Source of the DNA: Mytilus edulis
Lineage: Eukaryota
Assembly (NCBI RefSeq): GCF_963676685.1
Contig: NC_092348.1
Location: 40,176,001 to 40,240,000 of the forward strand
Direction of reading: 5' to 3'
Length of the DNA stretch: 64,000 bases
Shown one piece after another: positions 3,879-35,200 of this stretch (positions are counted from its first letter, which is position 1; each line of letters opens with the position of its first letter). The notes below the pieces were generated by a model, which did not search any database, was not told the DNA's origin, and saw only the letters and a list, made by a program, of their open reading frames with translations. The position numbers and the translations under genes are program-made.

Positions 3879-6800
3879 CTCCCAAGTCGATAACCATATA
3901 CTTCTGTCCACTTTCAGGCATTGAAAATAATAAACTCTTCATAGATACCAGAAACCTCTTTACTTTTCCATCAGGCCCATGGAGTCTTTCTGTAGGGAGA
4001 TAATTCTGATATTGGCAATATATTGATGCACATTCTGGTTCTAATGCAATAAGCAGATTTTCATCTGATATTCCAGCCTAAAATATATCAAAAAGCTAGA
4101 ACATAAACTCCGTCCCGACCCTACACTCCCAAAATTTAACGCGATTGTCCTAAAGAGGTTGCGTTGCAACTTGTCAAAATCTAGGATGAATGAGATTCAA
4201 TAACAATCGACAACCTATAAAAAAAACCCAAAATGCTTCTTTTACTGAGATAATGTCATCAAAATAGTTCAAGCATCCATCCTTCAAATATTGTTGTTAA
4301 TGAAAAATGTTGAATACTAATGATATGTTTGTTTGCATTTAACAACAGTTTCTGCACATTGGTTATAGTAAGACGGGAAATGTCATTGATGGGGAAATCA
4401 GGAGAATACAGAGAAAAACATCATTTTAGCAGCCTAATTAACACTATTTTCTATTAAAATTATTTCCCTTGCATCTTTCATTTTGTAATTCTGGCATACC
4501 AAGTTATCAGCATTGCATCCTTTACTGATTCTTTACTGTCTTCTCATTATATCAAGTTTAACAATGACACCACGGAATAATTGACAGATAAGATGAATCC
4601 AACTTTTCCTATTTTTTAGTTTCGTTTTTATCAAAATATCCTTTTACATTCAAACATGTTAAACACCAAGATAGGTCTTCGGTTTTCTTTTATGCTAGTA
4701 TGCGTTTGCTGTGGAAATATATGTGAGTGTATCCAACAGCCCACAATCCGTATCATCCATTATTGCTTGAAGAAATAAGTAAAGATTTCTAAAAATAAAA
4801 TCCAACGTAATTAGCTACGCTAGGAAGTAAACTCATCACATATACCAGGACTGTTTTGCATGTGCGTCAGACGCGCGTTTTGTTTACAAAAGACTATTCA
4901 GTGACGCACGAATCAAATTAGGTACGAAGTTGAAGAGCATTGAGGACCGCAAATTTATAAAGTTTTGCCAAATACAGCTAAGGTAATCTATCCTCTAGGT
5001 AGAAAAGTCTAAGTATTAAATGGTTTTGCTGTTACCTCGATAACTCTTAAGACACATAATTTTAGGATGGTGTGCATCTCTACCAGAGGATTGGGAACCC
5101 ATAATAAATAATAACAAGTGGTTTCGCCCATTTTTAATCCTTAAACACAAAAGCTGAAACTCTTGAATACGATCTGATAAAATGCTACGTTATTTTGTTT
5201 AATCTTCAGTCTGAATAATTAAGAGACCATTAACTGGGACATGTTTGAACAGACAGTCAATGCATTCAGTCTCCATCAATCGAACGACGACTGAAATCTT
5301 TTTTCTCCCGCAGACAAATTCAGTTAAGACTTAATCAAGTTCCCTAAAATTGTTTTATAATAGTTTGAAGGTAGAATGAAAAAGTATACCGCATTTGCAC
5401 TTCGTCTCATAAACTGCTTTGCTGAATCCGTCCAAATTGCTGGCACTGTCAAAACCCATCTGATTTCATCATCATGAATTCCAGTTCCCTGCTTTGCTAG
5501 TTTGTCAATCAAATGTGAAGTCAGAGCCTTAATTGAGAGACTAAACACATGGATAGCACTAACAGGCTTTCCAGATATATCTTCCATCATCATATCAAGT
5601 GTTATGTTCTACAATTGATAACGTGATATATACAGAAAATGTGTTCAGCATAAACGATTATAATAAGTTTTTATTGTTTCAAGAATAAATGGCTCCGAGC
5701 AAACTAAGTCATGTCTTATATATCAGTTAGTTGTTGTTGTCTTCAAACTTGCTTTCAGTAATTACGAGTACTCTTATATCAGCACAGTGTCTTTGGTTTT
5801 TAGTTTAGTGGTTTTGTGCTTCGTGCTAATCTGATGAGTATAGATATGTCCGGTTGACATTCACAGTTTATTATTCTGTTGTGCTGTTACATCACTGTCC
5901 AAGGATAGAAGAGGAGGTTTCACAAACATGTTTAACCATTTTGATTAAACGAATGCATGTTACAAGTCATGAACTTTTAAATAACAAAGCTGTCATTGGT
6001 TAATGTTTCAATATAATCAAATATATATTTATGATTTAGTTATCTTTTTAATTTGAGCACGCGAGCTAATGTAGATCAGAATTTTGATTTCCATTCTTTA
6101 TAGTACTCAAAATGATAGCAAACACTATTTAGAAATCTGATCTTACATGTTTACAGTTTTCTCCCAAAAGGTACAGATGATTAAACACACCATTAGAGGG
6201 ACATTGCTCATATAGGAAGACAACCGATGATTTCAATCGTGTCATCTTATCTCAAGAACTTATTTTGCTGATCTTTGATTTAAATGTTTTTCTTAATCTA
6301 ATCTCAAAACCGCAAACACAGGTTAAGATTGTTACTAATGGGCAAAACTAGAAACAGTCATATACAAGGATGTAGAGTTGTCTCAGTGGCACTCATACTA
6401 CATTTATTTTTACCCTAAGAGCCCCCAAATAGCAAATATAATAGTAAAATGCACGAGTTAACGTCACCGTTGAAAAACTGCAATCCCTAAGTGTATCACT
6501 TTGCATTGTTGTTTACACCAAAATGTCTTTATAATCAATTTCAGTTTACAAATGTATTCACATGTACCTTGTTGTTATGTAGATTCATTTTAAAACGATG
6601 AAAGTAGTAGAACTTATCTTGTTTCCCGTCCATCAATATATCGGCATATGTGTTTTCCGCATCATATCCGAATGAATCAAAATCCTTCTTTGCATCTAGA
6701 AGTATGCATGTTGGTGTTTTCAATGACATGAAGTGCTTTCCACCTGAATTCCATGCCTGGTTTGCCCTTATTTTTAAGGGATCAGACTTGAAATTTTCTT

Positions 6801-6882
6801 TCATAGAAAATGCATATCCTGAGTATGTGGTGCCAAAGTCCAAGGCTGCAACCATTAGGTAATTATTTTTTAATTTTGCCAT
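3879..6882 (-). CDS. HSPA12A: Heat shock 70 kDa protein 12A/B-like (atypical Hsp70), first three coding exons; 3' part lies outside the window
   Basis: Exons 6882-6568 (VAALDFGTTYSGYAFS...SLKTPTCILL), 5608-5390 (IRWVLTVPAIWTDSAKQFMRRSA) and 4077-3879 (AGISDENLLIALEPECASIYC...YMVIDLGG); GT-AG boundaries with compatible phases (0, 0, then 1). The symbol is a family-level assignment. Confidence 0.93.
4828..5020 (-). mobile_element. Decayed retrozyme (hammerhead repeat) fragment in an HSPA12 intron
   Basis: Reverse complement resembles 35190-35216 joined to 37303-37470 (…TAGATTACCTTAGCTGTATTTGGC…GCGTCACTGAATAGTC…ACGCGCGTCTGACG); catalytic core mutated. Confidence 0.7.
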
Positions 6883-7744
6883 CCCTCGTCAGTTTGTTTT
6901 TTTACCCTAAAATATTCAACTATACGTTTAAATATTCAGTTGTGCTTTTTCTTCTGGCATGAAAGTATTGTTTGTAATATTTAAAAAAAGTATTCATCAA
7001 ATGATCAAATACCGCTAGAAATGAGATCACGGTAAATTGACGTCTGTCAGGCGAAAACGCACACATTGAAATGGTCATATGGGACATAAGGTGACTTTCA
7101 TATGAATACAAATAAGAAAATGTGGAATGAGCGCAAATGAGACAACTCTCCTTCCAAGTCACAATGTGTCAATTTTAGGTCAAAGTACGGCCTGCAACAC
7201 AGAGCTTTGGCTCTTACCGAAAAAGCAATATGAATACGAATAACAATTAACCGTGAACTCAGTTAGAGGGACACATGATTATCAATAGTAATACAACTAA
7301 ATTGGCAAAATAACCGTCATTACTAAAAACTTGCATAAGCATGATAACTTCGTGTGTGTCAATGGTTACCGATAACAATTATTTCGCACAGAGATAGTAT
7401 ACATTAACACTATTAATCTTTTATATTTCCATATTAAAATGTTTGCAAAATAGATTAAAGGATTTAAAAAAATATACATGAGCTATATAATTATATCAAA
7501 AAGATTCTTTTGAAAGAATAATAAATCTCCATATATAGGAAATCTTATCTCACATTTAGGAAAATGTGCTTTATAGCTTGTTCTATGTAGAAAACTAAAT
7601 TTCTGTGAGTCATAAAAAATAATAAGAAAAAATATCAGTACGATATGAATTGATTGGTGATAAACGCCAATCTCAGTACTTTTGGCGTTTTCTTGGTGGG
7701 CAGTTTTAAGGGGTGGGTGGCGGAAGTTATGAGTGCCTGTATAG

Positions 7745-9091
7745 AGGACAGAAAGTCACAGAACAGAAAGTCACAAGAAAGAAAGACATTTGATAAAATA
7801 AAAAGTGACAGTACAAAAAGTCACAAATAAATTGCTGACAGTTGTTGAAAAAAAACTTGAAATATAATATATTCTTTTTATTTCATATATTCATTTTACA
7901 GTTTAGGGAAATGTTCATTAGCCTTGAGAAATGAAAAAATATTAAATTTAATGATCGTTAAAGTCATAATAAACGAGTATAAGTAGAATTTATACTTCTT
8001 CTAAATATGAACAAACTAAGAATTTTCTTCAGGAAAAAGTATATGTACATAAGTTTTATGATGAAAACTATCCATTGAGATATAAAAAACATATGCATTA
8101 TTTTTTTAATTTGAGGTTTCTTATGACTTTAACCAAAACAAGAGGCTGTCACAACGACAGCAAACCGGATTTAATAACATTTATTTGTGTCCTGCCAATA
8201 TCGCAAGAACCATAACTGATGAACGCTGAAAGTGAAAATCGTCAATATCAAATTTGACATCCATTTTGTCATCAGTATCAACATATTAAAATTTGAGAAG
8301 CTTAGGTTGAATGGTTCATGAGTAAATGCTACAACATGAAAGGAAACGCCATTTTTCGATCTTTCAAGTACCATAATTGATGAACGGTAAAAGTCAAAAT
8401 CGACATTATTGAACTTGACCTCCATTTTGTCATCAGTAACAACATATAAAAATTTGAAAAGCTTTGGTTGAACAGATCATGAGTAAATGCACGGATACGA
8501 CTGGAAAAGCCATTTTTCAAGTTTTCAAGAACCATAACTCCTGAACGGTAAAAGTCAAAATCGTCATTATTGAACTTGACCTCCATTTTGTCATCAGTAA
8601 CAACATATTAAATTTGGGAAGCTTTGGTTGAACAGTTCATGCGTAAATGAACGGACACGACTGGAAATGCCATTTTTCAATCTTTCAAGAACCATAACTC
8701 CTGAACGGTAAAAGTCAAAATCATCACCTTCATTTTGTTGTCAGTAACAACATATAAAATTTTTAAAAGCTGTGGTTGAACGGTTCATGAGTAAATGCAC
8801 GGACAACATTTGGTTGCCGTCCGCCCGACCGACCACCCGACTGCCCGCCGTACATCCCCAAATCAATAACCGACATTTTTGTCACAAAAACTTGTTAAAA
8901 ATGATATATTTCTTTGCACTATGAAACCATATATTATAAAGTACCAATCCAGTTTGACATTATTTTTTTTTAACAATTATTTGATTATTATTGAAATTCA
9001 ATAATTAATAATTACAAAGCTGCTTTAAATGTAATAGTTCAAGACAAATATTTTTTTAATAAGTGTTTTTGTGACTTTCTGTCCTACATTC
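7745..9091. mobile_element. MITE/foldback element with AGGACAGAAAGTCACA inverted termini, containing a nested HINE
   Basis: AGGACAGAAAGTCACA at 7745-7760 and TGTGACTTTCTGTCCT at 9070-9085; subterminal AAAGTCACA repeats. Confidence 0.6.
8137..8900 (-). mobile_element. HINE/Helentron-type element with 161-bp tandem repeats
   Basis: Units AACTTGACCTCCATTTTGTCATCAGTA at ~8251, 8412, 8573; (CCGY)n microsatellite at 8816-8850; terminal hairpin GCTGTC-ACAAC-GACAGC after AACAAG. Confidence 0.75.
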
Positions 9092-11953: not shown

Positions 11954-14625
11954 TCATACTGTTTCAAAAGCTCCTTCATAACATTGACAAGCCTTGACTT
12001 TTTCACCTGACAGTTCATAGCATATTCCAAGCATTCTCAAATTTGAAAGTTGAGAATGGACCGTATATTTTTTCCCATCCACTAATAATTCTAAATTACG
12101 AATTGCATGCTGTCTGTTTGGAATATCACCAAGATGATGATAACATAGGAATTTAAGAAAGTGTGACATGATAATAGGTGGTACAAAAATGGTCATATCT
12201 CCCTGTGTTAACTTTAATTCTTCTGGTATTAATGATGAGTCTTTCAAGTACATAACACAATCTCGAGTAGCTACTGTCATCCTTTCATTTAATGTCATTG
12301 TAGAATGTATATTTTGTCTGTAGATGTTTATATTTGTTTCATTATAGACACCTTTGCCTAAATACAGCATGGTAGGATCACATCTTGCTAGAACATAATC
12401 TAGTAGTCTTAAGCATACATTGTACTGTCCTATCACGTAATAAAACGACGCGTATAACAACCAACCCGACACAGCATCTGTCTTCAAACCGTCTTGCAAA
12501 TGTCTATGATAACAGTTGTGTATCATGTACGTTTTATTCATTGCGAATGGAGGCGGTAGTAGTTGTGCTACATGTTGATTGATTTTCGCATAGTGATAAT
12601 TACATACACCAATGATAAATTTAGAAGATTCAGACTTCAATAAATATTCAATCAATTCAAATTCTTTATAATAATGTGACATATTTCTTTCGTGCGAATA
12701 TGGTAGGTAAAAAACTTTATAAAATAGTGTGTCTAACTTTCCAGACGATTGTTCACTCTGTTTATCTAATGGAAGATAAAAGCGATTGTTCTGTGGAAAT
12801 AAATTCTTTAACAATCCAATAGTTTTACCACACTTTATACCTTCAAGTACATCAAGTAGTACTTTATTGTTACTCTGATTGATCTTTCCTAAGAACATGT
12901 TGTGTTCAGGTATGAAATAGTTTGGACAGTAACATTTGTCTATCCACGATATTAATTTATCAAGACAGAGAGAAAAACAATAAAACAATTTAGGCAATCG
13001 AAATATTTCAATATTCTCCTCCTCCGAGACCCAGAATAAAGCCGTCTTCAAAAAATAGGAACACACTAAATCTTTGACATTATCTTTTGTGTTAACAGCA
13101 CGTTTTAATGTTAATTTCAGAAGACCGTAACATAAAAGTTGGGTGAAATTAAATGAATGTACAAGTTGTTTTTCTGCCACAGAAAAAGACAATCTCCACA
13201 ATAAGTGATTTTCTGATATAGTTTTAGGTCCTATTGGTACTAACAGACATCCGAAGCTGATAATCCTATCAATAACGAGATTAGGAGGCCATTGTTTTCG
13301 ATGACGCCATACCCATGGAATGGCGTTGTAAGGGAAATATTTACTACGTAGGCAAAACGCAATATCGAGCGTTTGTTCTTTGTCGGATAGACATGGACCG
13401 TGAGCAGGTAGATCCATATTAGTATCCAACATTAGATGATGAATTACACCAACAAAGCCTGTTACTGAAAAATAAAAGCATTTACTGGTATCTCTAAAAG
13501 AGGCATCTTGTACAAGGAGGGATTCATTAACCTCTCCTGCTAGTAATTTGAGCTTAGTAAACCCAGGATGATCAAAATCTGTCTCCATTACTAGTGTAGT
13601 CCGTTGGCAATATTGTTTGACATTTCTTGTATTTTGTATTACATCTATATTATTTAAAACGTACATATCATCTCGGTCACTGCCTGGTAAATCCAATCCT
13701 TCTGCTAAACTTCCACTTGATATTTTGGTTGAATTAGGCGACGTTGCATTATGTATAGTATTCTGTATGATACAAAGTCGTTGTCGAGTACGTATATCTA
13801 TTTCAGTACCAGCGATATTTAGAAGGTGTTCGTATAACTTTTTATCCTCTAAATTATTTCCTGACCAACAATAGTTATCTGTGAAATATTTAAATATTTA
13901 GTTTAACATGTAACAACGTCAATAGAAATTGTGAACATTTATTAAGACAGTTATTGCATATTTTTGTTGGTTTTGCAGTTGTTTCATGACTTCATAATTG
14001 CATACACTAAATATTTATTGATAATTAACGTATTTTTTTAAAAATTTTCCTCCATGCATAATTATGATTTCTGTATCTTTTTAAATGCTGCATTGTCAGA
14101 TTGCAATATTATACCATTTACAGTTTAGATTTCAATTTAAATGAATTAAAAGAAAGGTTCAAAAGTGACCTTATAAACATATGATATAAATTAATGAATA
14201 TATTTTTGAAATCATTGATATATCTATTGTACATTAACCATTGTGTGCGATGTATTAAATACTATATACATACCATTGCTTTGATTATACATACCATTGC
14301 TTTGATCTGTACAAGTCTGTAAGTATTCGATATATTCGTTTGAAGATTTGTCTGGATATCTGAGGTTAAGTATCCATTGCTCTTGTGTTGTTCTTCTTTC
14401 TAAGCAAGCTCTAAACTCGCGTTCAAATTGACTGATTGTCAATCCAAAAACATCATTTGAGATGATCATCCCTCCATCTAAAGATTGATAAATCAACGGC
14501 TTGTATCTGCGTGTACCAGGATATGGAAAGCGTTTTAAATCATATTTTTCCCAACACGTAGTTTTCCTCATGCCGTACAAACATTTTTTGTCATTGATTT
14601 CTATGTTTCTTTCCCTTCTAATCAT
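11954..14625 (-). CDS. cGAS-like receptor (Mab-21 nucleotidyltransferase) copy A with novel N-terminal exon and C-terminal helical/TPR-like region, ~751 aa
   Basis: Exon 14625-14295 (ATG follows acceptor TTTACAG|TGACC; phase-1 donor G|GTATGT) and exon 13878-11954 (acceptor TTTCACAG). Motifs SGSLAEGLDLPGSDRD, HGPC..DIAFCL, WRLSFSVAE, CSYFLKTALFW, CPNYFIPEHNMF. Confidence 0.9.
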
Positions 14626-14929
14626 GGTCACTGTAAAGAAGATGTTATTAACTATAATACTTTTATTTAAAATACATATCTATCCCATCGACCTTGGAAT
14701 ATAGTATACCACGGATACTAATAAGTCTACTGCATGATTACGTATATACAGAAATTGACAATTATATTCGGTTAAAACCCATAATTTACCACATAACATA
14801 TGATTTCAGCTTTGCAGTTGCGAACGTGTCGTTTTGAGGCAGCAACAATCAAGCAGCAACCACAAATGAAGTATTTATCTATAAATTAACACGATATACA
14901 CTGCTTGTGCTTCCTATCATATTTTGTTT

Positions 14930-15035
14930 TGATTAGTGAGTGTTGCCTACAAGGAAGCTTCTGAACAAAGGTTTCGAAATGGTAAAGTTGAAATCATCCT
15001 TCGAAAGTTTTACAAACATCAGTTGGTTGACATTT
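14930..15035 (+). mobile_element. Ancient Naiad-type RT C-terminal fragment upstream of the cGLR copy A start codon
   Basis: Decayed version of LLTRKLLNQGFxxVKLKSSxxKFY; an equivalent fragment is at 27870-27985. Confidence 0.55.
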
Positions 15036-17800
15036 CTGTATATGTTTAAATTGCCATAATTAAATTCCTGTCAGGAACAGAAAACGTTTGTACCTTTCAT
15101 AAGCACTTTTTATTTCTTTATTCAAAATTGAACACTACTTAAATGTGGTTTTATATTGACCTTGATGACGTTGCACAAGTAAGATACTCATCTTTACAAT
15201 GTACATGTGTCGTTCAATGTTGTTTATTATCTTTGTCCGTCTATGTTTACGATGAAGTTGGTTTATGATGATCGATGTGGTCTATTGTGCTTTGGAATAT
15301 TTTGTATTATTCCTGTTATCAATCTTATGTATTAATCAAAATTATGACATTTGTCAAAGAAAGATGATGTCATATTAAAGAAATGTAGACCAGATCAAAT
15401 TATGTGTAAAGAATTTCTCAGAAGAGGAAATGATGAAATCAAATTTGCAACGGCAGATTTGAACCGTAATAGAATCTACTAGTTTTGTTAGAACAGTAAT
15501 AATGCTACCGCTAATTAGAATGAAAATTTGGGTAACTTTTTTTTATTTACAAATACTAGTATGTGGCCTTGAACTGTCGGTTCCTCTTTTTTAATGAGAT
15601 GAAATGTGAAATAATGATCTTATTAAATAAATATTTCACCTGATTTGATGTTGTTAATTACAGTTTCATCTTTCATTGGATCATTTGTATCTTTCAATCT
15701 ATCTGGTCTTAAATATTCATTGTGTCGATTTCAGACTTACTTCCCCCGAACGTTGTTGAAGCAGGTTTTAGACCCGAGCACACATCTATTATTTGCCCAA
15801 GCAGACATGCCATATAAAAAGTGTACCAATAAAACCTCTTTTTTACCAGATCTGATTTGAAATTGGTACATTATTATATGTTCAAGAAGTCATTGTTTAT
15901 AGTAAATTCCCTGGAAATACTTAAAAATCCAATTCTCGGTGATGATCCAATATTATTTGTTGATAGCTAGAATGAATATGTTTTTTTTGTATAAACAAAT
16001 TTTATCACCTTACCTTTCTTTTAATACAGCTAGGTATAAAATGTGATTGAAGCAATATCACTTGTACTATTCAAAGAAAATGTTAAAGGAAGTTGAAAGA
16101 AAAATAATTGAAAACGTCCTGGTAAAAAATGTAAAAAAGATCAGTGTCAATACCACTATCTTATTATTTTGTTTGTATTAGAACATATAAAAAATGTGAG
16201 CTTAGTATACATTCGTTACTTTATCTTTTAATATCACCTTGACTATAAAAAAAAGATTAAGGAAGCTTTAATAAAGAGTTTGGAAAAATTTCCTTGTGTG
16301 AAATTTTAAGGTGCATGTCCCAGGACATATTAATGTTATATTTCGTGCTAAAACATAAATGTTGAAGAGATTGTATAGATTTACTAAAAAATAAATCGAA
16401 ACAAAGCGTAAGGGAATCTTAGTTCAATAAATAACTCTAATTCTAAATATTTGATTCACACATTTGCCACTTGTCATGAATTACATGTAAGAGTAGTCCA
16501 TGCATGTATTGTATATATATCCAAGTTAATTCGTATGCAAGTTGGATTGAAACGAAGAAAAGTAAATCTCATTGGCAAAAAAAATAATAAGTGTAAACTA
16601 TTTTTCATGGGGACGGGAACAAATAAAAAAGCAAATGTTTGGTCGTCACCTACGCGTATCATTTTAGTTGTTGTAAATGAACATAAAATTAAAGTAGAAA
16701 TAAAAAAGCGCCACAAATGATGGCCAAATTTTGCAAATAAGATGTTTTTTTTATTTTATTTTAAAAGAAAAGCGAACAGAGCTTGTTGCATGTATTCAAG
16801 GTTATAATAAGGTTAAATGTACATATTCATTTCTATAGGATGTCAATGGTGGAGCATTAAATAGGGGTATGAATGAAATAAACAAAACATTAATGCGAAG
16901 AACAGAGCATTTGCGTAATGTCCAATCTGATGTTGTTTTGGCTATTGTCTAAATTAATCAATCATGAATTCTGACAAGATAGATGCGCAATAGTTTCTTG
17001 CTGATCCTGAAGCACTCTTTCCCAATCACCACATTTTAAAACTTTCAAAACTCGCAAGGAAGTTTATGAACATATATGTTATTAGTTTTCGGATAGTTTT
17101 GTTAGTGTATCGTACATTATACCATAGTTATTGTTTAAATCCACGGCCTTAACCACGCGACAAGGTCGAGAAACGACTGTTTGATATTGAAATCGAATGC
17201 CGAATGTTGAAAATTGAATGTTAAATGTTGAAATCGAATGTTAAAACAATCAGTTCAATTTCTACAAAAGGTTAAACGTATTTAAAAAATATTGTCCACT
17301 GCTCTTTCCTGTTCTCTTGAATATTCTTGGGAATATATTTGACCGTTGTCGCACTGTGTTTTTATATTGATGAAATCCTAGTCTTAATATGCAATAAAGG
17401 GTTCATTTTCTAGGCCACAGTTGTTTAACCATGTTCAAATCTCATGAATCGCGCTTGCGTAGATATACCTCCAAAAGAATAACTTAAAATCGAATATTTG
17501 AAAGACAAGGTTCTAAGAACTGAGACAGTTAAATAGTTGTATGACCAAAGAGGACAAACAAATAATAGCCATGCAAATGCATTTAAGGAAAACTTTCCTG
17601 AGGGAGTTGAAATCTAAGTTTCTTTATAATTTCTAAAGGATTAAAATCTTGGAAACCACCGGAAACGGTGGGAACCACATAAACTCCAAAAAGGAGATAC
17701 ATAAGGTTAGTCGCCATGGTTAATGTCTTCTACTATATATGCATCCCCTGTCATGATAGTTAACACCGAGTCAAAAAGTTACAATCAAGAATAGCAAACA

Positions 17801-17981
17801 ATTAGCCGTTTCAGAATCTTAAGCATCATGGGCAATTTCATTGTTCGTAACCCAAAGTAAAATTAAGGTCACGTCATTGGTTAAATTTCCATTGTTTATG
17901 ACATTTTTAACTAATCAGGACGTTTTGGTGTACACTTTTGAAAATATTACCCAGGATGCATTAGATTCTGAAACGGCGAGT
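17801..17981. mobile_element. MITE with ~35-bp terminal inverted repeats
   Basis: GCCGTTTCAGAATCTTAAGCATCATGGGCAAT versus ATTACCCAGGATGCATTAGATTCTGAAACGGC. Confidence 0.7.
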
Positions 17982-19759
17982 CGATAAAATTACAGATCGG
18001 ACGACTATTCTGGTATCCAAGACCTCGATTTTGTTTTGCTACGGAGCCAAGAGCAAAAATTTTTAATAATTAGTTTGCCTCCCAAAGAGGATCAGTTGGT
18101 TAACCAGTTTTAACACAGAATGTGTCAGTTCAATAAAGGCAACAGTAGTATACCACTGTTCGAAATTCAGTTAAAAAACAGACAGTTAATTTGTAATGTT
18201 TATGTAGGCATCACTTTTTTACGAAACTAATTCTAATTCCTTAATGAGGGTCGGTATAATTAAAATAAGGAAAACAAACGTTTTGATGAGTAGCAACCAG
18301 CAAAATTGTCGGACAATACTCAACAATTCAAATATAAATATTATCTATTTGGAGTCATGCTTTTTGCTGAAATCACATATTCGTTCAAGTGTACTTTGTG
18401 TTTTATATTCAACTGTAAAAATTCATGATATGAACCTAATAACAATATTGAAACACACCTAGCTACGTGTATGTACATGCGTGGATACAATCTAATGAAT
18501 CAGATTATACATGTATAACGCGAATGATGTTCCTACATATGAAATCTATTCTAAATGAAAAGGGTTACAAGAATAAACTTTGTATCAATATCATTAGCAT
18601 CAATAATCATTTTGCCAAGCTCTTAATTCTCAAAAGGATACAAATGTTTTATATTAGAAAAGTATTGTAATTTTGACCATTCGATGCATCATAACACCGC
18701 AAACCTGTAAAGCATTTTGAATAAAAAAAGCTACTTAGAGAATGATAACTATTTTGTTTGAATTAAGTTTACAGATAATTGATTAAACCATCTTTAACAC
18801 TAAATTAAAAGGTCAGAAGGTATTTATTTTCAATTTGTTCTTTCTCCAAACGCGAAAGTCAGCTTATTATTCGGTCAGTATATGATATAAGACTAAACTA
18901 GAACTATGCCTATAATGATAATGAGGATAGTGTATATATATACTGCATGATACTTAATTCCAGAAATGTACAGCACATTGTGCAAATTGAAAGAAAATGT
19001 TGAAACAATACAGTCTTATTAACTAGAATTTTAAATGTTATATATTTCTCAAAAAGAAAATAATAAACCCAGATTTATATTCCTCCTTGATTTTCAAATG
19101 TCTAGGTTTGAGCCTTTCTGATGAAGGTATATCACTTAATTAAAACATATGTCACGGCATTGGAGAGACTTCAACAAAATCTTTATCACTCGAAACACAA
19201 AAACCTCTCTCACCCAGGCATAAATTGGCTCGGCGAGATTTACTGATGTATTGTATCAAATTTGTGGATTTCAATGCACATCAATTTCGTGTTTGATTGA
19301 CTTTGCAGTGTTTTGATGCGAGTACCACTTATTGGTCTAATATATACAAAACATGAGTTTGATGTAATCTTTAATAAGTTTCTATACTCATTTTAGTTCT
19401 TCAGTGATAACTGATCTATAACTTTTACTTAGTTTCTGACAGTTAACTAACCCAAAGCTATTAGTTTTTTTATGCTTTTGCAGAGAACAGACATTTATAT
19501 TTTCTTCATTGCTGAGACATTACCAATACATTGTACCACATTACTGATTTTTGATTAATGATTTTGTACTGCATTGGTATTACCGGTCACATACATTATA
19601 CATACAATGAAATTATTTGTGTCAATATAATGGGTTACTTTTGTACCAATAAGTAATAATTTTCCAGAATTAACTGGCGGTAAAAATCTCACTAAAGTTA
19701 TTGTTCACATATTTGTTTATAATGGATAAGAAAACAAGTAATTGCAACTTATATTCATC

Positions 19760-20632
19760 TCTTTCCACTTTGTGGGTGCGAGGTCTGCCTTGTAGCGGCA
19801 TGAGCCTGCTCTTATTCGTAATCTACAAGGGTGTCTTTTACGTGCACGATATTAGACTTCTAAACACGGTCAGCCATTTATCGTCCCCTTCCGACCGACT
19901 ATCATCGTTTATCAAGACCATACTTGCAAATAGTGTCAAGGGAGAGAGAGCAAATAATTCAATCCCTGAAATTTCTCCACGGAACGTAGGTCGAACCAGA
20001 AAAATAAAGGCAACAGTAGTATACCGCTGTTCAAAACTCATAAATCCATGGACAAAAAACAAAATCGGGGTAACAAACTAAAACCGAGGGAAACGCATTA
20101 AATATAAGAGGAGAACAACGACATAACACTAAAATGTAACACACATAGACAAAATCCCACGAGAATAACAAATATAACATATATATATAACATCAAAACC
20201 AAATACATGAATTTGGGATAGACAAGTACCGTGACACGTCTTATCGCAATGTGAATTTACACTAAAAAATAAGAGAAAACAAACGACACATCGTTATAAT
20301 GTAATACACACAGAAACGAACTATAATATAACAATGGCCATATTCCTGACTTGGTACAGGGCATTTTTAAAGGAAAAAATGGTGGGTTGAACCTGGTTTT
20401 GTGGCATGCCAAACCTCGCACTTTTATGGCCATGTGAAATATAACATCAAAATGACAACACAGGACTACAATATAAATAAATTGGAGAACACAATTGACA
20501 AAGAATCACACGAACAACAGCCAACAAAAGGCAACAAGTTCAAAATTTTAATACGCCAGAAGTGTATTTTGTCCACACAAAAACCTTTGTGTTAGTAGTC
20601 CGATGCTCTAACCACTACACCACGGTCCTCTT
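19760..20632 (-). mobile_element. tRNA-derived SINE (Nin-domain-like) split between its A and B boxes by a ~590-bp repeat insertion
   Basis: Minus-strand head GAGGACCGTGGTGTAGTGGTTAGAGCATCGGACTACTAA (20630-20592) holds the A box; B box GGTTCGACC at ~19998-19990; insertion at 20000-20590. Confidence 0.6.
20000..20590 (-). mobile_element. Retrozyme/PLE-related interspersed repeat (inverse copy at 30150-30642; related piece at ~33640-34015)
   Basis: Shares AAAGGCAACAGTAGTATA, CCTGACTTGG and AACCTGGTTTT motifs with the other copies; a decayed hammerhead flank (…TCTGGCGTATTAAA) lies at the 20550-20585 end. Confidence 0.55.
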
Positions 20633-21299
20633 CATGTCACTAAAGTTATAAACCACTTCCCGAATCCTAGTGAAACTATTGAAATTAACATTGCAGATCA
20701 ATAACTAAAAAACTTACATTTATCAGCTTCTTTCGAATCATCTTATATGAATTGTTCTCGAAATTTCGTGCAAAGTGTTTTTATTTTTAGACAACCCAAC
20801 ATTAAGCTGTTTACCTTACACATTATTTACCACTTTTTCATAGAGCTACTTGTCTTCACATTGATAAAGCTTGCGGTAGCCGGGTGTTACCTTTCCTCGT
20901 CAGTTTTAATCTAGCGTCGTGATACAGTACAAAATATATAAGACATGAAGACGGTATTGTTACAGATCAGCTGAATTATATATTGTAAAAGATTCTAAAT
21001 TAATGCAAGATACAGTCACAGAAATAACTATATTTACAAGTCCTTCTGAGCCAGTGACAACTTTACAACAGATTTATCCATCGGATCACCAGCAGTGATG
21101 GTGATACATGTCTGTGTATATTCTGTATATTCAACTCGTCAAAACATCAACCCAACAATGTTAGATCTGTAAATTTGTTTTTGCAAATTGTTTGTTTAAT
21201 CAGTACATTTATATCTATATGCAAGATGCCGTAATCATCCAATTATTAAAATTCAGAAAAGTTGACTACGATTGCGAGAAGGTTGATTCGGCCGAAGGT

Positions 21300-23290
21300 T
21301 GAACTTTTCAAAATTCCGCTACCGATATTATAAAAATTTCTATTATATTCATTGCAAATATTACATCGTTTTTATCTTTACGAAATAATGTTGTGTCATC
21401 TGCTAGTTGTGAAATTTTAACGCTGTAACTTTTCCCATCTAACTTAATAGTGATTCCTTTTACTTCGTTGCTATTCCTGAACTTAAGAGCCATAATTTCA
21501 ACAGCCAAAACAAACAATAACGCTGATAGAGGACAGCCTTGTCGGATTCCCCGTGAATTTTTGAAATTTTCTGATACCCACCCATTGTTCATAACACATG
21601 TTTGAACATCTGTATACATAGTTTTAACCCACTTAATAAATGATTCATTAAACCCAAAATGTTTCAAAGTTCCAAGCATACAATCCCATTCTAACGAATC
21701 AAATGCTTTTGTAAAATCCACAAAAACAATTGCTCCCTCAATTTTGTATGTATCTGAGTAGTCTTTTACATCTTGGATTTGTCTCAGATTAAACCCGATG
21801 AATCTATTTTTAACATAACCGGTTTGGTCCTCATTTATAATTTTTGGAAGTACCTTTTTTAAGCGTTGTGCAATAACATATGACAAAATTTTAAAATCTT
21901 TATTAAGAAGGGATATTGGACGATAGTTTTCCGAAAGTAAAGGATCCTCTTTTTTGAATATCAAAGTTGATATACTAGTATGTTTTGAATATGAAAGACT
22001 GTTTCTATCGTATCCTGTATTTAAGACATTTACTAGTAATGATTTAAGCTTATTCCAAAAAAATCTATAAAATTCTACCGTAAGTCCATCAAGACCTGGA
22101 GATTTATTTAATTTCATTATAAAGATACCATTTGTGCATTCCTCTACTGTAATTTTCCCATCGCATATTAGTTTATCATGTTCATCAACTCTATTTTCTA
22201 ATTTTGTATCGCTGACATATTCTTCTGTTAAATCTTTATTTAAATTTTTTATTATACAAGTTTTCATAATAATCTTTTATTATGTTTAAAAGTTTCTCTT
22301 GATCCGAAATTATTTCCCCATTATATCCCATTAGCTTACTTATAGATTTTTAACTTGTCATTTTATTTCTAACCCAAGGAAGTAATCATTATTTTTTTTA
22401 ACAAATTCTACCCACTTTTCTCTAGATCTCACTTGAGCTACTTGCGCTTTTTCTTCATATATTTTATTTAGTTCTTCTTCATTACTATTTATTTCTTTTT
22501 CTATTTCATTGTCATCTATATTTGTCTCGTCCCTTATTTTTATTTTTTCTTCTAAGTCTTTTTCCAAAGTATATCTTCCCCCTTGGTTAACTTTGCTTTA
22601 TTTTTACAATAATTTGTTGTTACTTCCCTTACCGCGATTTTAAAACCATCCCATAATAAATTACAATCTAATGTTTCCTTTTCGAAAACATATTTATCTA
22701 TCAAAGTATTAATCAGTTCTTGGTAATCTTTATCTTGCAAAACTGAATTATTTATTTTCCAATACCCATTGCCCCTTTCTGATACCCCAGGTTTAAATTT
22801 TAGAAATACTCTTTGATTATCAGTGATTCGAATAACCGCCGAATTGATTTTACAAAATTCTATAAGTGGTAAAAAATCTTACTCATTAAAAATCAAATCA
22901 ATTCTACTAGCTTGTGACCTATCTCTTCTTCTTCATGTGTATTGTTGTTTATTTTCATTTAAATTTCTCCAAAGATCTGTCAGTTATTTATATTTAATCA
23001 AGTTTTTAAACCCATGTACAGGTTAAGTAAATTTACATGGCCGGATAGATTTTCTATCAATTGGTTTCATTGTCTCGTTAAAATCGCCCCCAAGCATTGG
23101 TATTTCGAGACCGTGTTCCTTTAAATAATCGTTGACCTTTTAAAAAAAAAGAATTTCTAGATGTTTTACAGTTAAGTGCATGTACATTAATAAATGTAAA
23201 AATTGAGTTATTTATCTGCACATTGATAAGTACTAATCTTCCGTCCCTATCAATAAATTTATTAATTAGTTCGTAGCTTAATTTTGAATT
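21300..23290 (-). mobile_element. Degenerate L1/Tx1 LINE ORF2 (APE endonuclease + RT), 3'-truncated
   Basis: GRLVLINVQI, LGGDFNET, SRIDLIF, RGNGYWKINNSVL, KSPGLDG, YRPISLLN, FVDFTKAFDS, GIRQGCPLS, SQLADDTT spread over frameshifted ORFs 21308-22267, 22358-22567, 22552-22740. Confidence 0.9.
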
Positions 23291-24312
23291 CTTGATTCAT
23301 TTAAGTTTACCTTAGATCACCTTTAGCCTTCAAATTTGAAAAAGGTTTTAACACATGAAGCGTTGTCAGACCCTTGTTAGCAAAGAGTGGATAAAGGATC
23401 TGTATTTGAATCAGATTGTTTAATTAACAATTTCAAATCATAAAATGAAAAACTCTTAAAAATACTTAATACTGTTGAAGTTATATTTGGTTCAAGGCAT
23501 AATAGAGGCGGAAAATATCGAAGGGATAATAAAACTCATAAGTTTATAACAACTAAAACTGCCATGGCAATAAACGAAAACCGACTAAAAGAGAAGCAAC
23601 GGAATTCCCCACTTGTGTTTCCCATAAGATCATTTGATTGTAAGTAAGATATTGAAATTAGGATTGAATGAATCTTCATTGCATTATCACGATTATTGCT
23701 TTTATCAAAATACAAGGCATATACATATATGACAAATACAACAGAATACAGAGAACTATTAAATAAATTAAAATAATGCAAAGATAACTTATAATAACTC
23801 ATACATGTGTACAACAAATTAAATGATAATTTGCAATCTTACTTTCCATGCAGCTATAAGACAACTAGTCTCTTAGTTAAGCATTTTGACCCAGCTTGTA
23901 ACAGAAAAATAAGCTTTCGTGTATTTGGCCATAAACAGTAATATTTTGCCTTGATCGTAACACCATCCCTTGATATTTTCTTTTATCAGCGACCAGATAT
24001 TAATAAGTGAAACGCATATTCATATTTTGAATATATGGACAATGCATAAGATTGTATCATAATTTCTTTGAGAATAAGCGTTATTAAATTACAAAGTACA
24101 ATGCTTGATGATTCAAAACTAAGATGAATAATATATGCTGCATTTAAATTTTGATTTTTTTCTTTTTCAGATGTACGACAAACAGATTCACCATGTTCCA
24201 AAATAATGAAATAAAAATGAAAAGAACACGTGAAATAATTTTATGCGTCCCAAGTGATTTTCCTGATTTCCCGTCATCAGGAATGCTGAAAGCCGCAAGC
24301 TTCATCATAACA

Positions 24313-27189
24313 CTAAGATGTCTTACTCTTATCGCCGGAGAGTTCATAGCATATTTTAAGTATTCCTAAATTCAAATTAGGAGAAAATGTGATAAATTCT
24401 GTTTCTTTCACTGTGCACTTTAAATCACGTATTGCCTGTTGCCTGTTAGGAATATCACCAAGATGATGATAACATAGAAATCTAAGAAAGTGTGACATGG
24501 TAATAGGCGGTATAAAAATGGTCACGTCTCCCTGTGTAAGCTTTAATTCTTCTGGTATTAAAGAAGAGTCTTTCAAGTACATAACACAGTCTACAGTAGC
24601 TATTTTCATCCTGTTGTTCAATGTCATTGTGGAATGCACATTTTGTCTGTAAATTTTTAGACAATCATCCGTGTAGATATTACTGCCTACAAACAACATA
24701 TTAGGTGTACATCTTGATAAAATATAATGTATAAGTCTTAGAGTTACATTGTACTGTCCTGTCACGTAATAAAACGACGCGTATAACAACCAACCTGACA
24801 CAGCATCTGTATTTAAGCCGTCTTTTAAATGTCTATGATAACAATTGTGTATTTTGTACGTTTTATTAATTGCGAATGGTGACGGTAGTACTTGTGCTAC
24901 ATGTTGATTGATTTTGGCAAAGTGATATTTACACACACCAGTAATAAATTTAGAAGATTCAGACTTCAATAGATATTCAACCAATTCAAATTCTTTATAA
25001 TAGTCTGACATATCTCTATCATGCGAATATGGCAGGTAAAAAACTTTATAAAATAGTGTGTCTAACTTTCCAGACGACTGTTCCCTCGGTTCATCTAATG
25101 AAAGATTAAAGCTGTTGTTCTGGAGAAATAAATTCGTTAATAATCCGCTAGTCTTACTACACTTTATGCTATCAAGTATGCAAAGGAGTATTTTATTGTT
25201 TCTCCGATCGATCTTTCCTAAGAACATGTTGTGTTCAGGTATGAAATAGTTTGGACAGTAACATTTGTCTATCCATGATATTAATTTATCAAGACAGAGA
25301 GAAAAACAATTAAACAATTTAGACAATCGAAATATTTCAATATCTTCCTCTTCCGAAACCCAGAATAAAGCCGTCTTCAAAAAATAGGAACACAACAAAT
25401 CTTTGACGTCCTTATTTTTGTTAATGATATACTTTAAGGTTATTTTCAGAAGACTGTAACATAAGAGTTGTGTGAAATTAAACGAATGAACAAGTAGTTT
25501 TTCTGCAACAGAGAAAGACAATCTCCATAATACGAAACTATCTGATATTGTTTTAGGTCCTATAGGTACTAACAAACACCCGTAATTAGTGATCCTGTCA
25601 ATTACAAAATTAGGTGGCCACTGTTTTCGATAACGCCAAGCCCATGGTTCTGCGCTACAAGGTAAAACTGTACTGCGTAGGCAGAATGCAATATCAAAAG
25701 TTTCGTCTTGGTCTGATATACATGGACCATGTAAAGATAGCGGCATATTCAAATAGAGCTGACGAATACTGTTAACAAAGCTGTCTGATGATAGATAAAA
25801 ACATTTACAAGTATCTCCAAAAGAAATAGATGGTATCAAGAGGGATTCATCAAACTCTCCTGTTACTAATTTGAGTTTAGTAAATCCAGGATGATCAGAA
25901 TCGGTCTCCATAACCAGTGTAGGCCGTTCTGATGACTGTTTGATATTTCGTGTATTTTGTATTACGTCTACACTATTGATAACGTACATTACATCTCGGT
26001 CACTGCCTAGTAAATCCAATCCCTCTGCTAAACTTCCACTTGATATTCTGGTAAGCGTATCCGACGTTGCATTGTATATTTTATCATTAGTTATGCAGAG
26101 TCGTTGTCTATTACGTATATCTATTTCAGTACCAACAGTATTTATGAGGTGTTTAAATAAATTTGTTTCTTCACAATCATTTCCTGGCCCTTGCAAGTAA
26201 TCTATAAAATTTGGATGTATTTAGTTAAACTGCAATAACGGTTGTAAAAAGTAATTATTTACATTCATGCTTCTTTTTATGTGTTGCTGTAGTTTCATGG
26301 CTTTTAATTTTTACTCTGAAATCATACCAAAATTCCTTACTTTCAATTCCAAAGTTATTGTTCTTATTTCAATTTGACGTCATAATTATAAGCATTTATC
26401 TTCACAAATTAAATGCATAATAAATATCATAAAGATAAACAGTCATCAATCTTTTCAATCTACCTTTTGTTTTGGCAATTGCTTGTACCAAGTCAGGAAT
26501 GAGACAGTTGTTTTCCATACGTTCTGTTGGATGATATTGTCAAGCGTTTGGTTTTGTCAGATTTTATGGACATCATCCTTATTGAATATAAACTCATTAT
26601 AGATACCAGGATTGAAATTTTATATTTTATATACCTTTGAGTTCGGTATTTTGTAAATATGTTTTTAACTTCGTGTTTGATTTGGCTTTCCAATTGTTTT
26701 GTTTCGAACGCCACTTATAAGTCTTATGTAGACCACGTCTGGCCCACTAAATTACAAGCCTTGTAGATCTATAGTTTTTTTTATTAAAATTATGTATCTA
26801 TCAACTGTATATTCACCATTGTCGGTAATATAATAGATATAAATAAATATATACATACATTTCTCTTGGTCTGTACAGTCCTGTAAGTATTCAATGTATT
26901 CGTTTGAAGATTTGTCTGGACATCTGAGATTGAGTATCCATTGTTCTTGTTTAGTTCTTCTTTCTAAGCAAGCTTTAAACTCACGTTCAAACTGACTGAT
27001 TGTCAATCCAAAAACACCATTTGAGATAACCACCCCTTCGTCTAAAGATATATAAATCAACGGCGTGTATCTGCGTGTTCCAGGATATGGAAAACGTTTT
27101 AAACCATATTTTTCCAAATACGTAGTTTTCTTCATTCCATACAAACATTCGTCGTCATGGTTTTCTTTTTTTCTTGCCTTTCTATACAT
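24313..27189 (-). CDS. cGAS-like receptor (Mab-21 nucleotidyltransferase) copy B, ~739 aa
   Basis: Exon 27189-26859 (ATG follows TTTACAG|TCGCC; phase-1 donor T|GTATGT) and exon 26201-24313 (acceptor TTTTATAG). SGSLAEGLDLLGSDRD, DIAFCL, WRLSFSVAE, CSYFLKTALFW, CPNYFIPEHNMF; clear paralogue of copy A. Confidence 0.9.
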
Positions 27190-29010: not shown

Positions 29011-29493
29011 TAATAAAAGCTTTTTATGATCAGATCATATTTGAAATTACTACGTTTGTGTATATTGAAGTAGTCATTATTGTTATTTTTAAAGAAAAGC
29101 ACGTAGGAAGTCTTTGTAACTTCAACGTCTCGGAAATGATCTAATATTATTCGATGATACCACGAACGAATGTATTTCTTGTACGATAAGAATTTTACTG
29201 AAAAGGTTTAGACCTTACCTTTCTTTTGATATAGCTTGATATTAATTCGTTACTTCGTCTCACAATATCACTTGCACTATTCATAGACGTAGTTACAGGA
29301 AAATGAAAAAACTTCCTGGTGAATAAGTTGTAAAGTTCTTTTGCTGAGGATATCTTATTATGGTGTTCGTACTTAAACATAAGTGTTTAAGCGAATTGTA
29401 TCGGAACATAACATTAGTGTGAGAATCCTAATTTGAAATCTAATTCATTTCAAAATTTTAATATACATACATTTGTCATTTGTTATATCTTGA

Positions 29494-32254: not shown

Positions 32255-35200
32255 ATGAAATCAGTTGAGATTTCTTTCCTTGTGATATGTGGAATATTTG
32301 TTACCAGCATTAACGCACATCTTAAAGACAATAGTAAGTATAATAGAATAAGAACTAAACAGTAAATGTTTGAGACAATTATTGCACATCACTTACAGAT
32401 AGCATAAGGGATGCTGACCTAGCATTGATTTTAAAAGCAGTATATTTCGGCAGATATAAGATCGAGATCATCCAATAAATATATGACCATACAATACGAC
32501 GAAACGAGCTTGTTTGTCTTGATATCTTTCGTGTATTGCCATGACGTTGTGAGTTTTAAATATTCCTTTTACATGTTATATCTCTTTTGAATAGAGATTC
32601 CTTATTTTCTTAAGTTTGTTGATTAAGATTTTCCTAGGGCGCCAAGTGGTCTAAGTAGGTTATTTACTGTACCATTACCATGAGGTTAGGAGTTTGAATC
32701 TCTCACAGGGGAGGTCTTTTCGACTAATCTTTTTTTTACAAATACCGAAGTTTCCGGTGGTCCAATCCGTGAATTCAGGCTTCATCCACCTCGGTTCATT
32801 CGTATATAGAACTTGTCGTTTTTTTGTTTTTTTCAATCATTGATGTAATCGTATAATTAGTGTAAGACAACGCAAATTGGTTGGAGTAAATTGCTGTATT
32901 CGTGTTCGTGAATTTTTTTCTATGCTTTCGTAAATTAATTTTGCTAAACAAATCCAGCTTAAATATCTGATCATTTGATTTTCATGATTGACCTAAAACT
33001 GTAAAGAATTTTTCAGTGTTAGTCTTACATTTGTCCTAAAAGGACGTCTTGTCTATCATTTTTTTTGAAGTAACCAAACTGGGTTATTTTTGTATATAAA
33101 AGGTTTATTCACAAAACCTTCGTACCACTTCTTTAGTATGCAAATTGATTTTATTAGCCCTCTGTATGTCCGTATAGGTCAATTGCAAACCATAAAACTC
33201 ATATTGTACATTTGTATGTCAGGATTGTGTCGTTTTCATCAACTTTTAGTAAAATCCCTTCTTCATAATTTGCATCAATACAACTCTTGAATTATTAAAT
33301 GTCTGTAGTTGTATTACAGAATTATTCATCTGTTTCGAAACATAATTACGAAAATACAAAAAGGATTTTAATATACATTTACACATTGCAGATTGCATAT
33401 ACATGAATATTATTGAATTTAAAACATACACGATTATGATATTCAAATGCAATGCATAGTAACGCTTGAAAGAAATTTCATTTTAAAATACTTTGAAAAG
33501 ACAAGTTTATTTTTCTTTTAATGAAATCGTGTTAAAAACAGGACACATGTGAAATTAAACTGAGATATTTGAAGAAAAAAACCCCCAATGTTATATGTAA
33601 GCATGTAAGTGTTAAATAGAGTTCAATATAACACTTTAGAGAAAAAGGTAAACTCACAAAAATACTGAACTCAAATGGCAAAATTATATCTCAAACACTT
33701 CTAACGAATGGATAACAACTGTCAGATTCCTGACTTGGTACATTCATTTTCCTATGTAGATAATAGTGGATTAAACCTGGTTTTATAGCTAGCTTTACCT
33801 CTCAGTTGTATGACATTTGCATCAAATTCCAATATATTGACAACGATATGTAAACAAAACAGACAGACATAATAGGTAAAAATGTCAAAAATTAGGGTAC
33901 AGCAGTCATCAGAGTGTAATTATCTTCATAACTGTGATAACAAACAAATATGTAACAAAGAAGCACAAAAAGGCATAAAGACAAAGCACTCTAGCAAAAA
34001 TAAAAGACAAAAATTCAATTTTTTTTTGAGTTTTAACTTTATAAGGTTTACTTATTTCAATTTTGCAACTTTGATTTTCTGATCTATATATCAAGAATAA
34101 TTCAAATCGTACCAAAACGATTGTAATCATTCTTTTTTTAGTAACACCAATGATAATAAATGAAAAAAAATATTCCAATATTAATCCGTATTCCAAATTA
34201 ATACAATCATTTTATATGTAGATGGCTATTTCAAAAACCGTCCGAGGGATTGTACAGACATTGATATCAAACAAAAGAGTGGTGTCTATAAAATTTACCC
34301 AGAAGGCTCCGCTGATGGATTTAACGTATACTGTGATATGACGACAGAAAGTGTGAACGGCGGCTGGACGGTAAGACTTTTTAATGCCCCATTTATGGGG
34401 CATTATGTTTCTGTTCTGTGCGTCCGTTCGTTCGTCCGTCCGTCCGTTGGTCGTACCGTTCGTTCGTTCGTTCGTTCGTCTGTCCCGCTTCAGGTTAAAG
34501 TTTTTGGTCGAGGTAGTTTTTGATGAAGTTGAAGTCCAATCAACTTGAAACTTTATGATATGATCTTTCTAGTTTAAATGCCAAATTAGAGATTTTATCC
34601 CATTTTCACGGCCCACTGAACATAGAAAATTATAGTGCGGATGGGGCATCCGTGTACTTGGGACACATTCTTGTTTCAAATATTTTTCTGCCTTTCCTGC
34701 AAAAAATTAGCTCTCATGCAGTTTTGTCTTTAACACTTTCGATTGTGAATATATTATACACTAATAAGTAGTTAACAATCATCCTGCATGATGGTATACT
34801 CTTAAAGGGAAGAAAAAAGTACGTTGTAGTCGAAATAATGTTTATGTTAATTTAACGGATGACATATTTTTATATTTTGGAACATCAATGCCCTTCAACT
34901 TTGTACTTGTTTGGCTTTATTATATATTTTGATATGAGCGTCACTGGTGAGTCTTATTTAGACGAAACGCGCGTCTGGCGTACTAAATTATAATCCTGAT
35001 ACCTTTGATAACTATTTACACCACTGGGTCGATGCCACTGCTGGTGAACGCTTCGTCCCCGAGGGTATCACCAGCCCAGTAGTCAACACTTCGGTGTTGA
35101 CATGATTAACACTTCGGTGTTGACATAAATATCAATAATTTGGTCATTTTTATAAATTTCCTGTTTACAAAACTTTGAAATTTTCGAAAAACTAAGGATT

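Follow-up and report, generated by a model that had tools for sequence, protein, structure and literature searches.

A clipped tandem pair of predicted cGAS-like receptors from a large Mytilus expansion

What activates the hundreds of cGAS-like receptors (cGLRs) of bivalves is an open question, and a 64,000-nucleotide (nt) stretch of the Mytilus edulis genome (NC_092348.1, positions 40,176,001 to 40,240,000; hereafter the window) holds two of these genes in tandem. The pair, genes 1 and 2, does not answer that question. Both are new members of a known and already catalogued cGLR family, and ordinary members of a large Mytilus cGLR expansion of about a hundred copies. The account that we somewhat favor is that they are ligand-gated cyclic-dinucleotide synthases signaling to STING, in which a tetratricopeptide repeat (TPR)-like tail would gate the enzyme and the trigger would not be generic double-stranded DNA (dsDNA) or RNA (dsRNA). 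A preliminary description of the locus regarded the proteins as uncharacterized, with ligand and product not known, and this is supported. It overstated the novelty of the pair: Li et al. 2023 (PMC9980059; the name here stands for text passages and supplements 1–6 of the paper) already contains both fusions of cGLRs with TPRs and a relative with 91% identity.

Two long open reading frames lie on the minus strand of the window, which is AT-rich animal DNA (Table 1). The main exons of genes 1 and 2 are 81% identical across 1956 nt at an offset of 12.3–12.6 kb, in agreement with the two paralogues ~12.5 kb apart of the preliminary description, and the duplication takes in, besides the main exon, the coding exon upstream and one predicted exon that is non-coding. 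GT-AG phase-1 introns of 416 nt (gene 1) and 657 nt (gene 2) connect the coding exons into open frames of 751 and 739 amino acids (aa), and the two proteins are 73% identical. The gene 1 model is supported because the M. edulis RefSeq protein XP_071173939.1 (P0124), annotated as an uncharacterized protein and beginning at the second Met of gene 1, equals residues 19–751 with 0 mismatches and the same splice.

The cGLR identity proposed for the pair is borne out by sequence and by structural modeling. SGSLAEG..GSDRD and DIAFC, the reported GS motif and acidic triad, are present in both genes, and G166, S167, D178, D180, and D282 (gene 1 numbering) are kept in each. Of 120 aligned relatives, 111 cover all five sites, and 108 of these have GS and the three Asp unchanged. 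Gene 1 D282 aligns with the acidic residue in the "SVDLTL" of Sp-cGLR1. WRLSF..AEK, LLK, and SYFLKT, near-invariant across the family, are likewise retained in both genes. As to the Mab-21 motifs ascribed to both copies, Pfam Mab-21_C is matched over the cut-off in both genes (E ~1e-11); for Pfam Mab-21, gene 1 lies at the cut-off and gene 2 under it. The best PDB sequence matches are Sp-cGLR1 (E 2.7e-10), Cv-cGLR1, and MB21D2. Sequence matches to Csm2 (E ~1e-3) were dropped, as fold searches did not reproduce them. Core structure was judged on M. trossulus P0004, a relative that shares 85% identity with gene 2 and 73% with gene 1 and whose model, built from 72 sequences, has a predicted template modeling score (pTM) of 0.83. 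The model matches cGAS with a Foldseek E of 5.6e-11 and Cv-cGLR1 with a Z of 27.2 (root-mean-square deviation [rmsd] 3.4, 308 residues aligned). Cv-cGLR1, mouse cGAS, and Sp-cGLR1 lead the ranking (Z 24.8–27.2), followed by MB21D2 (24.0) and MAB21L1/MiD49 (20–21), and bacterial CD-NTases (≤16.8) and OAS1 (12.9) stand behind Cv-cGLR1. On this whole-fold match of the relative, the core is predicted to adopt the cGLR fold. Li et al. define cGLRs by homology over the nucleotidyltransferase (NTase) core as well as the C-terminal bundle of helices, found here in the Mab-21/Mab-21_C and Sp-cGLR1 matches, and by predicted structural homology to a cGLR or CD-NTase, found in P0004. For a putative cGLR-STING pathway, the same genome contains five STING-like exon matches over the STING_LBD cut-off, two of them with an internal stop.

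The tail is ~280 aa long rather than the ~250 aa first given, and its TPR-like character stands in the model. Gene 1 residues 465–751 folded alone (pTM 0.86) form about four helix pairs, by reading of the helix list, with an insert of ~65 residues interrupting the repeats midway, and TPR-type proteins make up most of its 50 best structural matches. The tail is thus predicted to be a TPR-like, interrupted solenoid. The Pfam check suggested earlier, which passed for Mab-21_C, fell short for TPR: none of the 14 proteins scanned (both genes and 12 relatives) reached the TPR cut-off, with TPR_2 at 15.1 bits versus a cut-off of 27 in gene 1 and 26.4 versus 27.8 in the best of the 12 relatives. The last repeat is the sole Pfam-visible repeat in the family and the part clipped in both genes. 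The Y of GxCYE is followed by 21 residues in gene 1 and 11 in gene 2, and by 38 in 63 of 118 relatives. The C-terminus is therefore short by 17 and 27 residues, and the last repeat appears uncapped in gene 1 and halved in gene 2. LGICYELSG, quoted for the pair, occurs in gene 1, and gene 2 reads LKICYELSG (G728K) where G is kept in 117 of 118 relatives. The preliminary description missed the truncation of both tails and the signs of decay in gene 2.

The clipped ends could reflect birth-and-death decay of one or both copies, especially of gene 2, which may be weak or silent and owe its continued similarity to gene conversion; we rate this explanation as distinctly unlikely. The early TAG, G728K, D58G, and Y90C of gene 2 agree with decay, and the closest collected protein to gene 2 is only 85% identical. 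In M. galloprovincialis, the two genes have short models of 482 and 225 aa; in one M. edulis model (P0132), exon 1 is joined to the next gene downstream; and raw RNA reads hardly cover gene 1. However, both frames stay open for >730 codons at a synonymous divergence (dS) of 0.42 and a nonsynonymous-to-synonymous ratio (dN/dS) of 0.38. The early ends also recur across species: M. trossulus P0004 ends as gene 2 does and P0003 as gene 1 does, and the M. coruscus protein P0005 is likewise short. In a tree of 24 selected rows, the two genes fall in a six-member clade (100/100) that also contains short-ended M. trossulus and M. coruscus proteins. Therefore, the clipping is inherited and not a private error, and the clipped forms have persisted across species. 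Transcription of a gene 1 relative further argues against decay. A 1053-nt RNA contig (run X1) skips the gene 1 intron, and the introns show no depth. The contig differs from gene 1 at 3 of 194 nt in exon 1 and 48 of 855 nt in exon 2, and it thus represents spliced RNA from an allele or a close relative and does not prove transcription of the gene 1 copy itself. Gene 1 is the stronger candidate for a functional receptor, and gene 2, with half of its last repeat gone, may be a weakened copy.

The exon-1 N-terminal module is the one undescribed part of these proteins. It is ~95 aa long, basic (isoelectric point [pI] 8.9 in gene 1 and 8.6 in gene 2; family median 9.2), and the best-conserved part of the protein, with near-invariant K31, F33, Y35, G37, R39, R69, R89, and K93 and the motif KRFPYxGxRRY. 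Its dN/dS of 0.39 between the paralogues indicates purifying selection. Within the P0004 model, residues 64–104 are helical and residues 1–60 are of low confidence. The module has no Pfam family and no usable Atlas match, and a PDB sequence search gave chance-level similarity only (uL22, E 0.24). Among longer proteins with the module, 76 of 77 are named Mytilus and one is without a name. A profile search of 1.84 billion representatives returned 59 matches, and the 10 divergent ones looked up comprised one Mytilus cluster and nine without a taxon; the named matches are Mytilus only. Our literature search, mostly of open-access work, returned no paper on this Mytilus subfamily or on the module at its N-terminus. 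Fusions of the module to Hsp70-like, protease, SAM, and SRCR domains (P0132, P0133, P0155, and P0157) are probable gene-model joins; the parts of P0132 map to gene 1 exon 1 and the next gene downstream. P0102 carries two module copies in tandem, and P0194, P0198, and P0199 contain a more divergent version.

In human cGAS, a basic N-terminus helps DNA binding. By analogy, the basic exon-1 module could supply the binding that a near-neutral core lacks, making the pair nucleic-acid sensors with the tail only as a scaffold. The pI of the module, its conservation, and its near-invariant K/R residues are consistent with this idea, and the nucleic-acid screen of Li et al. had no Mytilus protein, so the module was never in an assayed construct. 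We nevertheless consider it unlikely. Residues 1–60 are of low confidence in the P0004 model, and ~60 of 146 tail loci in this genome have no module exon within 15 kb, so related enzymes may dispense with it. Nucleic-acid-sensing cGLRs have a pI >8.5 according to Li et al., a value reached by neither the core (7.2 in gene 1, 6.0 in gene 2) nor the full-length protein (8.3 and 7.8) as computed with Biopython, whose algorithm differs from theirs.

In our preferred reading of gated cyclic-dinucleotide synthesis, the enzyme would be off at rest, and a ligand bound by the tail, by the basic N-terminal module, or by both would order the active site. The sensor or autoinhibitory role that the preliminary description suggested for the tail is putative. 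Two nucleoside triphosphates would then be cyclized, and the product would activate STING. The best guess for the product is 2′3′-cGAMP, which cGLRs make most often in Li et al. The ligand is probably neither generic dsDNA nor generic dsRNA because the core is near-neutral, the screen contained no active look-alikes, and Sp-cGLR2 provides a precedent for an orphan ligand. The look-alikes are ten bivalve proteins that carry the HGPC motif and were screened by Li et al.; none belongs to the 15 active enzymes, and Li et al. attributed inactivity in the screen to unknown pathogen-associated molecular patterns. Cv-cGLR1, Cg-cGLR1, Sp-cGLR1, and cGAS share the core fold and catalytic layout of genes 1 and 2 at ~20% identity; they are activated by dsDNA or dsRNA and were assayed as constructs of ~360–380 aa without such a tail. 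Sp-cGLR2 (712 aa), Cv-cGLR2 (631 aa), and human MB21D2 are orphan-ligand cGLRs, and the constructs of the first two are long; a table of ligands and products is given in PMC10855445. Sp-cGLR2 is a long-tailed coral enzyme that makes 2′3′-cGAMP and whose ligand is not known; its motif likeness to genes 1 and 2 is by eye only.

The same catalytic triad serves the whole polymerase-beta superfamily, and MAB21L1 and MiD49 are matched with a Z of 20–21. Together with the lack of a close look-alike among the active enzymes of Li et al., this would fit another nucleotidyl transfer, such as synthesis of linear oligonucleotides or adenylylation of a protein that the tail recruits as substrate, or a non-immune role like that of Mab21L1. 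We regard these alternatives as very unlikely: cyclic-dinucleotide synthases are the best structural and sequence matches, and a large lineage-specific expansion beside several STING genes (218 cGLR and 9 STING genes in M. galloprovincialis according to Li et al.) fits immunity.

Several observations weigh against the gated-synthase account. The flanks of the active site deviate from the motif of Li et al., h[QT]GS X8-20 [DE]h[DE]h X50-90 h[DE]h: SSGS replaces h[QT]GS, the aspartates read D-R-D-D/V, and the spacer is ~97–99 residues instead of 50–90. R179 between the aspartates is found in 5 of 115 relatives. The catalogued VDH97265.1 shows the same deviations and was accepted as a cGLR by Li et al. 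The best Z of the tail is 11.3 (rmsd 3.3, 166 aligned), where the tool advises caution for helical repeats below 13, its Foldseek E is 0.024 or worse, and the best Pfam TPR match has an E of 0.025 in gene 1, with none in gene 2. Departures from conserved columns number 13 in gene 1 and 16 in gene 2, compared with a median of 6 among 70 relatives. The coding exons of gene 1 drew almost no reads in three raw-read RNA runs, of which 6–18% each was read. Activity of the subfamily is a prediction, as Table S3 of Li et al., the nucleic-acid screen, lists no Mytilus protein. The ten look-alikes in that screen may be inactive for reasons other than a missing ligand.

The three-part architecture is present in both genes and is not special to them. 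Module matches in this genome number 107, merging into 103 loci, of which 73 lie on contig C12; contig C5 holds this pair only. A tail match follows within 15 kb downstream at no fewer than 86 of the 103 loci, a lower bound as 150 of 592 tail candidates were scored. Gene 1 has 510 database matches, and among the best 120, 115 are named Mytilus and 5 are without a name. Some bivalves have >200 cGLRs (Li et al.). Between the paralogues, dN/dS is 0.38–0.39 in each of the three protein parts, which places all of them under purifying selection. The drop in dS at codons 401–450 (Table 1) suggests gene conversion. M. trossulus P0004 is gene 1-like at residues 51–100 (98%) and gene 2-like at residues 201–250 (100%), a mosaic that suggests recurrent exchange between tandem copies.

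Close relatives are already catalogued. VDH97265.1 from M. galloprovincialis (Table S1 of Li et al.) is 91% identical to gene 1 over 482 aa and has the same exon-1 module and SDRD; unlike genes 1 and 2, it is without a tail. That table lists NDVFGLTI-type cGLRs, and the exon-1 motif occurs in 35 of its rows. Fusions of cGLR and TPR are reported in Fig. 1C and Table S2 of Li et al., and Mab-21 followed by TPRs is described for Crassostrea gigas in the consulted part of PMC8195603. In bivalve fusions, including the Mytilus-type VDI80653.1 and CAC5377012.1, the core precedes a long tail in which a single TPR is detectable close to the C-terminus. The oyster proteins have a HEPN/Ig/DED-TRADD-N front end, whereas genes 1 and 2 have the exon-1 module instead. 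Of six family members looked up in Table S2, five are present, each with Mab-21 alone. Their TPR-like tail is unannotated, and therefore the "87% single-domain" figure likely undercounts tailed cGLRs.

Because both copies are clipped and intact relatives exist, the pair is not the best entry point to this family. The conserved exon-1 module, which was never in an assayed construct, is the part worth following. A bolder conjecture, which we hold to be doubtful, is that the module is a Mytilus-restricted ligand-binding or gating domain that, with the largely unannotated four-repeat TPR-like solenoid, defines a subfamily of ~100 copies reading a new class of pathogen signal, and that the locus would be a natural tail-truncation series tuning the switch.

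Table 1. Positions of the two genes and of neighboring features in the window
Feature	Position	Strand	Remarks
Gene 1 long open reading frame	11954-13897	-	647 aa
Gene 1 coding exon 1	14295..14625	-	ATG and basic Mytilus-type N-terminal module, residues 1-110; RefSeq match from residue 19; covered by RNA contigs
Gene 1 intron	13879..14294	-	RNA contig from a close relative lacks 13880-14300 and has three different letters at the junction
Gene 1 cGLR core	12818..13878	-	Residues 111-464
Gene 1 catalytic codons	G166 13714-13712, S167, D178 13678-13676, D180 13672-13670, D282 13366-13364	-	
Gene 1 helical tail	11954..12817	-	Residues 465-751, stop TGA; predicted interrupted TPR-like solenoid, lacking ~17 residues of the family's final helix
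Gene 1 likely gene-conversion tract	12860..13009	-	Codons 401-450, dS 0.04 versus 0.42 overall
Gene 1 predicted 5′ non-coding exon	16014..16100	-	Putative; donor GTAAGG at 16013; conserved in both copies; no coverage seen in the RNA data examined
Gene 2 long open reading frame	24313-26220	-	635 aa
Gene 2 coding exon 1	26859..27189	-	N-terminal module; D58G and Y90C at near-invariant positions
Gene 2 predicted intron	26202..26858	-	GT..AG, phase 1
Gene 2 exon 2 (core and tail)	24313..26201	-	D178 26001-25999, D180 25995-25993, D280 25695-25693
Gene 2 tail lesions	K for conserved G 24357-24355; TAG 24315-24313	-	~27 residues lost, including most of the last repeat's second helix
Gene 2 predicted 5′ non-coding exon	29219..29310	-	Putative; donor GTAAGG at 29218
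Hsp70-like gene	3880-6888	-	Multi-exon, downstream of gene 1
Non-LTR retroelement	21308-22878	-	Fragmented, between genes 1 and 2
Fibrinogen-related gene exons	34185-40858	+	Interrupted by a 473-aa open reading frame at 35245-36666
Methyltransferase exon	57943-58410	+	Methyltransf_11 E 8e-15
Short LTR-type element	60651-62740		
Tandem arrays	199-1058, 8204-8805, 56193-57915		Unit ~160-170 bp; last array related to 34456-34685

The Hsp70-like gene downstream of gene 1 is presumably an HSPA12, and P0132 has a weak HSP70 match (E 0.005). The join of gene 1 exon 1 to this gene in P0132 hints that exon 2 may be broken or missing in that M. edulis assembly. The retroelement between the two genes, of the type without long terminal repeats (LTRs), matches RVT_1 (E 1.9e-28). 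The open reading frame that interrupts the fibrinogen-related exons, for which the Pfam scan gave no match, we take by eye to be a Penelope-type reverse transcriptase. In the short LTR-type element, 497-bp direct repeats (97.8% identical) surround a 368-aa open reading frame with a retrotransposon gag match.

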